64,000 nucleotides of DNA from Botryllus schlosseri. Its lineage: Eukaryota. The stretch is taken from assembly GCA_051294905.1 (NCBI GenBank), contig CM119373.1, positions 5,830,001 through 5,894,000 on the forward strand, in the 5' to 3' direction. How positions within the stretch are numbered: the stretch's first letter is position 1; the number at the start of each line of letters is the position of its first letter. The position numbers and the translations under genes were made by a program. This document shows, piece after piece, positions 54,090-58,226 of this stretch. The notes below the pieces were generated by a model. The model had not been told where the DNA came from and made no database searches. It saw only the letters and a list, made by a program, of their open reading frames with translations.

Positions 54090-56161
54090 TCAAATCGTTG
54101 GTTGATGTGTCCGAATCGATAGTCGGAGTCGGTGGTTGTTGAATGTTTGCATCTGGGTCGGAAGTAGAGATTGATGTCTCGGCGACATTGGTTGGGTTTG
54201 CGAGAGATTTGGTATCGTCCTCGAGAATGTCAGAATCGTGGCCCGTACGGATCGTTTGCAGTTCGTTCGCGTCTCCCTGAACGTTGCGAGTAATCCTTTC
54301 ATCAACCGCATACCGTCGCCGGCGGAGTCGTGCACGGAGGGCCTGAAATGAGCTAGCGGTTGATTCACGATTAAACGTTCTCTAAGCCTATGACGATTAC
54401 AACGTAATAATCGGCATGAAAAGTGTAAACCCCATAGCATCGTAGCGACAAACCAGCAAGAAAGTAAAAGTTTAAGCAAAGAGTTGGTAGTAGTGGATAA
54501 AAAGGATAAAATGCTACAAATAATGGCTTCGGACGCTACTCTTATTGGCTTTACGGGGTCTATTTGGGTAGTGTCATCCTGTCTACTGCTGTTCGAAACG
54601 TACGAAGCGGACAGGCTCCGTAGACGATGTACTAGCAGCATGGAACTGGATATGTGAGATAAAACATTATCGTAATCTGTGCTAAATGACGAGTCCATCT
54701 TCCTGAATAAATGCATAAAGGTTTCTGTGATGTTGTCAACACGTGGTGAACCCAATAAATCGTCAATGCTGAGGTTCATCGAAAATTGATTTGAGTGACT
54801 GAGGCATTGAGTGATGTCAGAACTCCATTTTGGTACTTGAAATAGGAATCACCCACCTTGAATACTCTGGTTGCGTTTGCGGAGCCAGTGTCGATATAAT
54901 GAGTCTTCAAAAAGGTTGTGTTGTTGTCGAATAATTGACCGAAATAAGTTTTATCTGTCCTGAACGAGATGAGTGGTCGGGCACTAAGTGTTCCGTCCGG
55001 GAAAAATAGGTTGTTGTGGACGGTGACGTTTTGCGTTATGCAATGTAGTTTGTATAAGAACGAGTCAAACACTCCTAGTCTCGAATTGTTGGGTGCTATA
55101 TTGAACGTCGAGTCCGGTGACATTGGGGTCATCGATTTGTGGACGTTGTAAAATTGTTGTTCTATTGTGCAAATGAGGTAGTCCAAGTATGAAATCAGTC
55201 TCAGGTGTCTATCCATTGAATCATCATGCAATTCCTGCATCTGTCCTAACAAGAGACGCGTCGAAGTACTTGAGTCGTTGAGTCTTTCTGTCGAAAGTTT
55301 CAACTCAAGGGTCTTGGCATCGCTTAAACTGCAGCGGATTAGAATTAAAGAGATTCCACCTATGACGCATACTGCTCGTTTGGGTAAGCAGCGGACCAGA
55401 CCGTGATTACATTTGCGCACTGATTGAAAAGGTAGAGCCAGGTCGGGTATTTCCACCCAGGATACTTCGTGGTTGCGAGTCGTGTGCATAACAATGTTTG
55501 TTCGCATCCTTATCGGCGCCGTAGGACACGCATATTTGTTTGTGATAGAGGGGGCCCATATGATGGTCCCTTGGTCTGTTTGACAGTGCCCAACCTTCGC
55601 TTTACGTCCAGAAAGGTCAAATATATCGGCTCTTAGTTTGCTGGTTATTGAATCTTATACAATAGGTATGGTGTGTACGATTAGGTTGGGCAGAAATCCG
55701 GACCGTGAGCTGGCCCATTTCCATTCCAAGTGTGGTTTCTTCGTGGTTGAAAGTAATCCGTCAGCTTGTTCAGTCAGCTGTCCGTATGCCGACAAGTGTG
55801 TGACTATTGCATGTTGGCATTCCACTAACGGTATACTGTAACGTCGTTCCTCTCCGATATTCTGTGCGTAAGATCAAAAAAAAAACAATGTGTGTCCCAA
55901 CTTTGTTGCTACAAAGCATATTTTCCCATCGAAACCGTGAAATCGGTTTGTCAAAGCGTATACATTTGCTAGGCCCGACTTTGAGTGCATAATCGGGCCG
56001 TGTTCGAATTTGTTTGGTGGCTGAATATCGATCAAATCAGATGCGGCTTCACGTCCACATACGTTAGCCGTAATAGAAATCGGAGAGTCGTTTCCTTTAG
56101 TTGGGCGCGCTAACAGCCACGCCGTCAAAACCGACAGGACAATCGATTGCCGACAAAACAT
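54090..56161 (-). pseudogene. env: Env: class III viral fusion glycoprotein with signal peptide and C-terminal TM; in-frame stops at 55874-55876 and 55655-55657, frameshift near 54778
   Basis: Signal MFCRQSIVLSVLTAWLLA; DGKIC...FFF...VECQHAI...WKWASS...HCQTDQGTIIW; GQMQEL...ICTIEQQ...MSP helix; NVTVHNN...ARPLISFR...GQLFDNN...RVFKVGDSYFKY; TM LLKLLLSCWFVATMLWGL. Confidence 0.85.
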
Positions 56162-58226
56162 AATCCTTGGGTGCGGGCGGCTTGGAAATTGCACGTCCTG
56201 TTCTTGTGGTGATTATTTTATCAACAATAGGTCTGCAAGGCAATTTCGAATCGTTACAGTCGTTAACAATTTCAAAATCTCGCTCGCTCAAAATCTCGCT
56301 CGCTCAAAATCTGCTCGCTTGAATCTGCAATAATATCTGAACCGGATGCGCTCGCTGTTGGCTCGACTGCATTTTGAAACTGAATTGTATTTTCTGCGTT
56401 AGCAGCGATGTTCGTTCGGCCTACATGTTCTGTAGCCACGTGGTTTTCGGCATCGTGAGAATCGGATGTAAACTGCCTGTTTGCGTTCGGTCGAGAAAAA
56501 TCTGAGATGCCATCGCCGTCGCAATACATGACTTTGACATCGTATAATGCTACGTTACGTGTTTGACCTGAGATTGCGATTTGAAGATGATGTTTCCATC
56601 TACGTAAAACCCGGAATGGTCCTAGATAATGCTTGCGTATCCCTTGCATCTGTGATGGTTCCATAACGTATACGCATTGGCAAGGATGTAATTTGTTCGG
56701 AAAATAATGTAGGGGAGAGTGGGTAGGTATGGACCACTAAATGTTGCAAAGCTATTAACTTGGACAAACTTGGTCTAATATTCTCAAATTTCGGTATAGA
56801 CGATCATTAGTTATATGGCTAACTATTACTGGTAGAATTAAGCTAAAATACCCATGTATTTGGAAGTGACATCAAATTCTGTAACAATACATCATTTTTG
56901 TAAATAAAAAATAGGCTACGAGGTATGAGCCGGGGGGGTGGTGAGGTATGGGCCGCTGTCTGTATTGAATCAACAAATTCTATTCATATCCTACAAACCT
57001 TAACTCCTGTCACAGTTTTGCCAACACTTTGGATATATTGATATAAAGCTGGGCTGAAAGTGGACAATTCATTTATTTAAACTCCCGTATTGATCTTAAG
57101 TCGTAGCCTTATGCATAACGAAACAAGATAACTAAAAATATGTAACATGACAATCACTACTAAATCATGCTTCTTTCGCCTCAACTACCCCATCAAATCC
57201 AAATGTCACAGCTCTTTCTCTTATTCAAGTGGGAGAGACAAACCATAATACATATTGGAGCATATGATGACATACTGTGCTAACAAACTTGTCTCCTCTT
57301 CATTAAAGACAATATTGGAAAACGATTTTGAAATCTTTTTCATGTGAGACTCATCCCCTGTTTTTCCATATACCTGTTGTAGCTCTACCAATTTCCTACT
57401 GACGGCATGTTTCTCTTTTTGATACCTCCCATGCTTTAACTTTTCGTATTGCCAAACTCAGATCTGATTCTTGAAACTGGCCTTTTTATGAGTTTCATGA
57501 TTAACTTTCAAGTGATTGTATATGGGAAAGATAAGACCAACACCTTCTGTATTATAGAGATAAATCTATTTAATAGGACCAATCAAATATTGATTTCAGG
57601 TATATGCTATGCTGTCCCATACCCCAGCCTATTGAGGTATGGGCCGGCCCATACCCCAAGCTGCTAAAAGGCCCATACCTCGAACACTACATTTTTCGGA
57701 TTCTTACCATAATTTCAAGATCCGAGAGATTGGCAAAGCATTAAAACTATTCTCTATAGATAGCATATTTCTATAGCTTCCACACCGTAAATAAGTCTAA
57801 TCCAAACATGCACATATGTGGACTCAGACCCAAATTCCCTATTTTTAAATAAATTTACTTTAACCGCAAAATGTATATCTCCAGCTGAGTCAAAAAGTCC
57901 GCTGGCCTCATGGCTGTGAGTAACATGGGTGAGTCTGGAGCCTTTTTCTAACAATCACAGAACTTGACAAGCATATGAGATGTCACAGTCACCTGATATG
58001 GCAGTGGCTCACACCTAAACAGTGGCCCATACCTACCCACTCTCCCCTACATGTGACAGTCCAGGTAAAGCCTGTTTCAGGCGTCGTCCGATGTCTGGGT
58101 CAGTCAAAAGCACCCATGTGACAGTGAAATAACAAAGAGACACAAAATAAAGTATGAGCCGGAACGGGTGGAGCAGCCAGGTTTTGTCGAATGCAGGAAC
58201 GTTACCTGACTTCTTCACATGTAAAA
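56097..58226 (-). pseudogene. Vestigial pol-frame ORF2: hydrophobic segment + integrase C-terminal GPF domain + TRxGR...DYV tail, split by the 56712-58047 insertion
   Basis: Removing the insertion and one TA gives in-frame ...ALPGLSHV|HYFPNKLHPCQCVYVMEP...HYLGPFRVLRR...; removing a 16-bp duplication at 56272-56303 restores ...TTRTGRAISKPPAPKDYV. Confidence 0.8.
56712..58047 (-). mobile_element. Internally deleted pogo-like (Tc1/mariner superfamily) DNA transposon
   Basis: 27-bp TIR GGGGAGAGTGGGTAGGTATGG(A/G)CCACT, TA TSD; remnants GQFQESDLSLAIRKVK (psq-type HTH) and VFNEEETSLLAQYVIICSNMYYGLS (CENP-B-type HTH). Confidence 0.85.

Follow-up and report, generated by a model that had tools for sequence, protein, structure and literature searches.

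Organization of the element

The analysed window (64,000 nt) carries on its minus strand a copy of a Ty3/gypsy retrotransposon with CsRn1-like proteins and a gB-like env, from which the protease core, reverse transcriptase (RT), the RNase H and the integrase core are absent. LTRs, a primer-binding site and a polypurine tract are all present, with the 5′ LTR truncated in this copy. The 3′ LTR (TG...ATA) spans 53105..53431, its inner boundary being placed by the polypurine tract at 53432..53443. The 5′ LTR is reduced to 49 nt of its 3′ end (59823..59871; 96 % identity to 53105-53153). No further LTR match beyond this pair was found in the window, and the remainder of the 5′ LTR is replaced by a very high-copy element beginning at 59872 (depth >10,000 across 59650-60197 in contig run X1). 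The primer-binding site (59811..59822) directly follows the LTR end, and its plus strand is identical at 12 of 12 positions to the tRNA 3′ end listed for Tunicata_Ascidiacea_Clep_errantivirus_2, a gB-type element, in the available part of Supplementary file 1 of PMC13524379. No tRNA genes were found in the window.

The gag N-terminal and capsid part (58468..59496, minus strand, ATG at 59496) is interrupted by an in-frame stop at 59460 and ends at a frame break, a CA run near 58470; it matched DUF7041 at E = 0.0083, with 17 bits falling short of the cut-off of 28. The gag C-terminus lies in a different frame (58215..58472, minus strand, stop at 58217-58215) and contains an imperfect CHCC-type knuckle with its first Cys at 58337 and the spacing C-X2-R-X9-C-X5-C. 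This C-terminus matched the gag ends of L006, L009 and L010 (E 0.001-0.007; tblastn, nine-locus database). The relatives used for comparison were nine distant CsRn1-like loci, of which four reach the protease start and three of those also the knuckle.

At the other end, env (53848..56161, minus strand, ATG at 56161) is broken into at least four frame pieces, and its ATG overlaps the end of pol. A signal-peptide-like run is seen at the env start and a membrane-anchor-like run near 54482-54426. PF00606 was matched at E = 1.8e-4, though its 21.5 bits do not reach the cut-off of 43, and no Atlas match was obtained. Six of the seven listed differences between this env and sister copies fall at third codon positions (P = 0.007).

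Pol is interrupted by a non-coding DNA-transposon insertion of about 1.3 kb (56712..58047) with terminal inverted repeats (32-nt arms, 97 % identity) and TA at 56710-56711 and 58048-58049. The insertion is a high-copy sequence, with a depth of 430-990 in X1, where the contigs of the window itself have 6-11. The insertion and one TA together measure 1338 nt, and therefore both flanks are in the same frame. Apart from the insertion, the interval between 58290 and 56709 leaves no space for RT, RNase H or an integrase core. Taken together, the insertion, a second frame break (see below), the broken gag and env and the lost 5′ LTR make this a dead copy.

Downstream of the insertion, an integrase C-terminal piece (56272..56709, minus strand, HYFPNKLH...ALYDVK) comprises an SH3-like GPF module (approximately 56691-56527) and a disordered acidic tail. 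It is 68 % identical to residues 241-370 of P0001, an intact integrase that carries rve (E = 9e-9), whereas P0001 residues 1-240 gave no significant tblastn match in the window. The end of the integrase tail (TRTGRAISKPP...DYV; 56100..56273, minus strand) lies in a different frame, is 65 % identical to P0001 residues 373-429 and overlaps the env start. A 16-nt tandem repeat (56280..56313) marks the frame break, with P0001 matching in two frames on either side. The identification of a GPY/F module in the earlier note was thus upheld by the 65-68 % identity to the C-terminus of the rve-bearing P0001, and the piece belongs to the GPY/F module of Ty3/gypsy integrases. The structural model of the piece has five strands, and its best Foldseek rows were retroviral integrase C-terminal domains (E 0.007-0.06, none at E ≤ 0.001). 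An alignment profile, which includes core columns from the relatives, matched the PFV and Ty3 integrases. Among database proteins, P0002 was the only short relative, with a one-frame match to the tail over part of its length only, and among longer proteins P0001 matched 14 distant Pols, at 22-31 % identity. Loci L001-L005 were set aside as chance matches, since they matched only P0001 residues 364-425 (E 2e-5 to 4e-4). Other locus searches for relatives gave no match.

The hydrophobic run and its open frame

Upstream of the insertion, an open piece of 80 codons (58051..58290, minus strand, FLHVKK...PGLSH) lies in the -1 (pol) frame. It has no ATG and no Pfam, homologue or Atlas match. Within it, a U-rich stretch (58102..58164, minus strand; 44 % U versus an element mean of 25 %) codes for a hydrophobic run (58158-58102) with a KD19 of 1.99. 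The run was assessed by Kyte-Doolittle values, a Hessa-type mean and a single-sequence AlphaFold model. AlphaFold on the 80-residue piece alone gave a helix at residues 37-63 (pLDDT 87-94 in blocks 41-70), although single-sequence models tend to render any hydrophobic run as helix.

The U-rich stretch is hydrophobic in all three frames (KD15 of 1.81, 2.19 and 1.67), an alternative frame exceeding its own, and T occupies 9, 12 and 10 of the 21 first, second and third codon positions of the run. Equal hydrophobicity was reached in 13 of the 262 stop-free frames of at least 60 codons in the window. Dinucleotide shuffling of the 240-nt piece produced it, in the given frame, 57 times in 5000, and shuffling of the U-rich 75 nt alone 1502 times in 20000. 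Eight stop-free runs with a KD19 of at least 1.6 were counted in the sense frames of the element, and the two strongest (2.72 at 59590 and 2.31 at 53676) belong to none of gag, pol and env. The run nevertheless scores above the anchor of env itself (1.99 versus 1.65). The argument from three frames is weakened because the env anchor is likewise U-rich (9, 10 and 8 of 21 codon positions) and moderately hydrophobic off-frame (1.39 and 1.09).

The earlier note had proposed that, once the insertion is excised, a single ORF2 joins a transmembrane (TM) helix to the integrase tail. The pieces do exist, the insertion flanks are in frame and a helix-like run precedes the integrase C-terminal domain. 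They do not form one ORF, however: no ATG precedes the run, and the TRTGRA...DYV tail is in another frame. The extension of ORF2 to TRTGRAISKPPAPKDYV does not hold, as the frame runs into a stop at 56272 and, behind the tandem repeat, the tail is read in the other frame. Thus no single open frame with a start or a slip site leads from run to tail in this copy.

A -1 relation of this frame to the gag end was also correctly recognized in the earlier note, and the same relation was observed in all three relatives in which the gag end and the protease start are both visible. A possible, imperfect -1 slip site (G AAU UUU; 58224..58230, minus strand) can be read in the sequence. No frameshift-stimulating hairpin was found behind this putative site (fold z-scores -0.12, 0.28 and -1.41). 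A frameshifted Gag-TM-GPF product, as suggested in the earlier note, is impossible from this copy in view of the gag stop at 59460, the frame break near 58470, the two breaks in ORF2 and the 5′ LTR stump.

The run ends in the best local match to the protease starts of the relatives. This match, VLLTDPDIGRRL (58078..58113, minus strand), resembles the sequence immediately preceding the catalytic motif of the protease and was the best of 173 local 12-mers (8.0 versus 4.25 for the next). It is suggestive only: its score was reached by 96 of 66849 12-mers window-wide, so that about 0.2 would be expected by chance among 173 windows, and the match is not significant. The run follows the knuckle Cys in the -1 frame after 233 nt, versus 143-182 nt to the matching position in three relatives, and the frame before the protease is non-hydrophobic in four of four relatives (best KD19 ≤ 0.12). 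From the run to the integrase tail there is a spacing of 54 nt plus the insertion, versus about 1076 pol codons in L006 and L010. An eroded protease start with an incidental hydrophobic run, which the earlier note had offered as its alternative, fits these data better than Gag-TM-GPF, with weak statistical support. An integrase-linker origin was also considered for the last ten residues before the insertion but was not supported: the profile aligned only from residue 80 onwards, and the expected offset was outscored by another in the ungapped comparison. The linker was seen in four of the eight CsRn1-like loci scanned.

Sister copies and RNA coverage

Sister copies were observed through public contigs in three contig runs (X1, X3 and X5), of which X1 and X3 represent one sample. 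In each of the three runs, contigs of high depth (219, 1287 and 27.7) link 56711 with 58104. In X1 and X3, which stem from one sample, this joint has some 20-30 times the depth of the contigs of the window itself (summed depth does not equal copy number), and it recurs in X5. The loss of pol is therefore common to the high-depth sisters, which are without the insertion. The gag core is skipped in most of them, and 58171-59361, with both zinc knuckle and putative slip site, appears to be missing from the major sister form.

The sisters retain the hydrophobic DNA at 58104-58170 (at least 80 % identity) though they differ on both sides of it, and no listed sister difference falls within it. The protease-start match lies within the 54 nt that are not common to the sisters at the 80 % level. 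Counted between the joint coordinates, both skips (1191 and 1392 nt) are divisible by three. One sister contig departs from the window at 46 of 626 positions in the tail; for env the figures are 123 of 878 and 75 of 693, which makes the tail better conserved than env. Over 639 letters of the tail the sister contig is shorter by 13, a difference with which a single frame there, as in P0001, would be compatible. RNA depth was 0-0.7 over 56088-56635 and 58006-58279 versus 4-14 over the LTR and the env 3′ end, in a single run of which 6 % was read and in which a 3′ bias is possible.

Origin of the junction and comparison with known elements

We consider it probable that the junction is the scar of an in-frame deletion, in a family that carries env but is non-autonomous, comparable to rotifer TelKA2n or pol-less Athila. 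Through a large internal deletion the protease core, RT, RNase H and integrase core would have been lost, and the pol frame's 5′ end (from the gag overlap to the first protease residues) would have been brought up against the last ~200 integrase codons. The pol frame would have been preserved at the join, for which the chance is one in three. The integrase tail was probably kept because env starts, and may have its expression signals, inside it, by analogy with Tor3b. The family would have been copied by the enzymes of a complete relative, with env kept under selection, and the present copy would have died later through the transposon insertion, the second frame break, the damage to gag and env and the loss of the 5′ LTR. 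The membrane-anchor-like stretch before the integrase remnant is real sequence and most likely a by-product of the deletion, the hydrophobic run presumably being the translation of a U-rich stretch rather than a selected membrane anchor. We favour the deletion scar because of the short spacing from run to tail and the 56711/58104 joint in three contig runs, the -1 frame after the knuckle with its best local protease-start match, and the three-frame hydrophobicity with stronger runs outside gag, pol and env. In addition, no TM-plus-tail protein was found (the P0002 match being partial), and the env ATG overlapping the pol end, the third-position bias in env and the TelKA2n, Athila and Tor3b precedents agree with it. 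Several observations point the other way. The hydrophobic DNA is kept in sisters, the skips are multiples of three and the tail is more conserved than env. The run outscores the env anchor, itself U-rich, and the protease-start match is non-significant. Finally, the frame before the protease is polar in four of four relatives and an integrase-linker origin is unsupported.

It is unlikely, in our estimation, that the sisters encode a selected single-pass protein made of a TM helix, the integrase C-terminal SH3-like domain and the tail. Copies with gag would reach such a protein by a -1 frameshift out of gag; in gag-deleted copies it would instead continue directly from the first ~45 gag codons. 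Integrase C-terminal domains bind nucleic acid, and the protein could tether element RNA or a helper capsid to an Env-bearing membrane. The retention of the hydrophobic DNA between two rearranged flanks, the one-frame length and conservation of the sister tail and the predicted TM-like helix are all consistent with it. Should the joint have no letters between its two ends, 59362 would meet 58170 precisely on a codon boundary in both the gag and the ORF2 frame; on its own, however, this frame arithmetic proves nothing. The protein is absent from 1.84 billion representatives and from 90 % clusters, weak evidence given the short contigs. None of 21 candidates among longer proteins carried the 80-residue piece, the 154-residue frame gave one of five candidates (P0002) among proteins of similar length, and phmmer on the representatives gave four matches, none joining run to tail. 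Literature searches covering titles and abstract openings, chiefly outside subscription journals, gave no description of a TM-integrase-tail protein. The slip site without a stimulatory structure and the low RNA depth over run and tail (one run, possible 3′ bias) also speak against it. That the pol deletion turned into a new gene, with the gag N-terminus, membrane helix and integrase C-terminal domain in one frame in the amplified sisters, is a doubtful proposition.

It is quite improbable that the run was a normal part of a complete parent's Pol, where in gB-type ascidian elements it would form a membrane anchor separating nucleocapsid from protease, and that the deletion derivative simply took it over. 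The spacer from knuckle to protease exceeds that of three CsRn1-like relatives by 50-90 nt and the stretch is kept in sisters, but none of the four relatives has a hydrophobic frame there (the pol 5′ end of P0001 is not among them), nor do any of the 21 longer candidates carry the piece. Retention of the U-rich stretch as an untranslated RNA signal (packaging, splicing or protein binding) has very little probability; it is compatible with the deletion scar, yet adds a function. The high U content and the retention in gag-deleted sisters would suit such a signal. However, folding is not unusual, no canonical splice acceptor was found (the nearest YAG is preceded by 55 % pyrimidines in 20 nt) and the gag-skipping joint has no GT..AG ends.

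To our knowledge, the link from envelope to RNA or capsid is poorly understood for invertebrate envelope-bearing retrotransposons. If the TM-tail frame were conserved and translated in sisters, a deletion junction would have given rise to a new accessory protein, anchored in the membrane as a tether for RNA or capsid alongside a gB-type fusogen and a candidate for this link; the element would then be satellite-like, supplying envelope and anchor to a helper's particles. With the deletion scar, the family adds an ascidian-type example of env-keeping, pol-less LTR families, a kind already known from TelKA2n and Athila, and bears usefully on the question why a fusogen is retained by elements that are non-autonomous.

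The gag-(pol)-env order and gB-like env resemble the ascidian HSV/gB-type Ty3/gypsy errantiviruses, and all nine Ascidiacea rows among the available Tunicata rows of Supplementary file 1 are ENV_HSV (PMC13524379). Set beside these by description, the errantiviruses have an intact GAG-POL-ENV (Chary and Hayashi; PMC13524379), whereas most of pol is gone here and the rest decayed; the copy would be a derivative of this type, not an intact member. With the CsRn1 clade (CsRn1, PwRn1, AgCR1-14) it shares the CHCC-like knuckle, the -1 gag/pol overlap, the GPY/F module and an LTR ending in ATA, as described in the available text of PMC2582038. The knuckle departs from the CsRn1 signature CX2HX9CX3C, and imperfect CHCC signatures are reported for three elements in that paper, which in its available text found no ENV-like protein in the clade. 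The primer site is also imperfect, corresponding to the tRNA end classed 'others' rather than to the Trp row (PMC13524379, available rows), unlike the tRNA-Trp site of CsRn1. The copy is CsRn1-like by its proteins only, having no RT for clade placement. The tunicate env-bearing elements Tor3a, Tor3b and Tor4b of Oikopleura have pol, unlike the present copy; their env RNA starts by splicing or from a promoter inside the pol end, in Tor3b from a promoter inside pol (PMC4402516, available text). By analogy, the pol 3′ end may have been retained because env RNA may start there. Pol-less Athila of Arabidopsis likewise has LTRs, gag and env without pol, is mobilised in trans and has ORFs under purifying selection; it belongs to a plant lineage, and no retained integrase tail is described in the available text (PMC2410132). 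TelKA2n, from the rotifer Adineta vaga, is an LTR family that is non-autonomous and carries env; it differs in host and lineage (the canonical bdelloid env is described as paramyxovirus-derived), and for it the available text mentions no TM-integrase-tail ORF (PMC5408684).

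The copy in the window and its decay

The LTR element lies on the minus strand from 59871 to 53105, in DNA that looks like that of an animal, with short inverted-repeat elements scattered across the window. Elsewhere in the window, a 537-codon unbroken frame (31003-32616, minus strand) reads TSP1-TSP1-LDLa-MACPF-EGF and is complement C6-C9-like, a 544-codon unbroken ORF (48105-49739, plus strand) had no Pfam match at E<=1, and two paralogous frames (4932-5666 and 20119-20838, minus strand; DNA 71-73 % alike) are, by eye, presumably pentraxin-like.

This copy is dead. The gag gene has an in-frame stop 12 codons past its ATG and changes frame within a CA run near 58470, and the 5' LTR is cut down to 49 nt. 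The env ATG (56161) overlaps the pol end; env is split into at least four frame pieces and its gB match is weak, below the cut-off. A frameshifted Gag-TM-GPF product tethering capsids to membrane or Env, as the earlier note proposed, is therefore impossible from the window copy, the tail of its ORF2 (see below) also being out of frame. A very high-copy element (59872-60159; depth 10,000-32,000 in contig run X1) stands in place of most of the 5' LTR. Two tandem primer-site-like units (59731-59837; 57-nt period, 88 % identical) each have an LTR-end copy ahead of them on the element's strand. Past the env anchor, a 177-codon cysteine-free frame (53848-54381, minus strand) probably extends env as a long coding tail, as 4 of its 5 listed sister differences fall at third codon positions.

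ORF2 and the integrase tail

The upstream piece of the reconstructed ORF2 is open over 80 codons and lacks an ATG (58290-58051, minus strand); it runs up to an insertion that has inverted arms of 32 nt and is flanked by TA at each side. Since the insertion plus one TA measures 1338 nt, the piece is in register with the frame behind it (56709-56275, minus strand). The hydrophobic run (58158-58102, minus strand) has a 19-residue Kyte-Doolittle mean (KD19) of 1.99, and AlphaFold, run on the single sequence, models it as a helix. Thus, the proposed joining of a TM-like run to the integrase tail was borne out only in part: the run and the shared frame of both flanks stand, but this frame stops at 56272, and the TRTGRA...DYV tail, which comes after a tandem repeat of 16 nt, is read in a different one. 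An 11-nt direct repeat (58050-58060 and 58115-58125) flanks a segment that is not shared by the sister copies and may be a trace of how the junction in the window copy arose.

The part downstream of the insertion is indeed the integrase C-terminus. When 1.84 billion representatives were searched, the tail gave four matches, the best being P0001, an integrase of 430 residues that carries an rve core. Two different frames of the window correspond to its residues 241-370 (68 % identity) and 373-429 (65 %), and nothing in the window significantly matches its core. The tail model (7-sequence alignment) places five strands within residues 12-61 and is unstructured past them; Foldseek ranks retroviral integrase C-terminal domains highest for it, with no row reaching E<=0.001.

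Sister copies and the hydrophobic run

Contigs of three public runs (X1 and X3 being one sample, possibly the one from which the window comes) were mapped to 52800-61000, together with the reads of a single RNA run. The window's own contigs have depths of 6-11 (X1) and 43-53 (X3), the gag core 63-92 and 278-470, and most bins of env and integrase tail 157-336 and 1058-1806 (one env bin, 41.5 and 245). Depth, which is no count, suggests about 20 copies. Each of the three contig runs contains two deep joints, one from 56711 to 58104 (depth 219, 1287 and 27.7) and one from 58170 to 59362 (144, 1099 and 28.7), both possibly with further letters in between. The common sister form thus has no insertion, has lost pol as the window copy has, retains exactly 58104-58170 and appears to skip most of gag, including the knuckle and the putative slip site. 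Env frames hold 7 of the 40 listed sister differences (863 more lie beyond these), 6 of the 7 at third codon positions (P=0.007), a sequence pattern which suggests selection on env; none of the same 40 falls in ORF2.

That exact retention could suggest that the sisters encode a selected TM-integrase-tail protein. Both skips are multiples of three, one at a codon boundary provided nothing lies between; one sister contig has a length across the tail that is compatible with one frame, and it is nearer to the window in the tail (46/626 differing) than in env (123/878; 75/693). The env anchor is likewise U-rich and scores below the run, and distant CsRn1-like relatives are polar before the protease. 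However, the run sits at the pol start in the -1 frame, as in 3/3 relatives. Of 173 local 12-mers compared with four natural protease starts, the one at the end of the run scores best, which is not significant (score reached by 96/66849 12-mers overall). The stretch is 44 % U and its translation is hydrophobic whichever of the three frames is read, 13 of the window's 262 long stop-free frames equal its hydrophobicity, and the one RNA run scarcely covers it. Two stronger runs lie inside the element, outside any gene, and no TM-plus-integrase-tail protein was found in protein databases (1.84 billion representatives included). We consider such a protein unlikely.

One stronger run, the element's most hydrophobic (KD19 2.72 at 59590), lies in a leader frame (59503-59721, minus strand; 73 stop-free codons, no ATG before the last codons) that served as control and possibly gives a small upstream product; the other (KD19 2.31; 53620-53676, minus strand) lies between env and 3' LTR.

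A simpler candidate cause of tail conservation would be that env starts inside it, as the Tor3b env transcript starts inside pol (PMC4402516). Recombination between subfamilies could also give the tail its younger look. On balance, we favor the view that the run is a scar left by an in-frame deletion in a gypsy family that bears env and is non-autonomous, of which the window has a decayed copy.

Relation to known elements

In its Gag end and its integrase tail the element is similar to CsRn1-like elements, but it matches neither the CHCC signature nor the tRNA-Trp primer site of that clade (PMC2582038). Its primer site is identical (12/12) to the tRNA end given for a gB-type errantivirus of an ascidian, and all nine Ascidiacea rows are gB-type (PMC13524379, Supplementary file 1); the element is thus most readily taken for a derivative of such an errantivirus, with pol deleted. 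TelKA2n of Adineta vaga has the same layout as the common sister form (PMC5408684), and among Athila elements, families with gag and env but no pol are common (PMC2410132). The element adds to an already known kind, the pol-less env-bearing LTR families.
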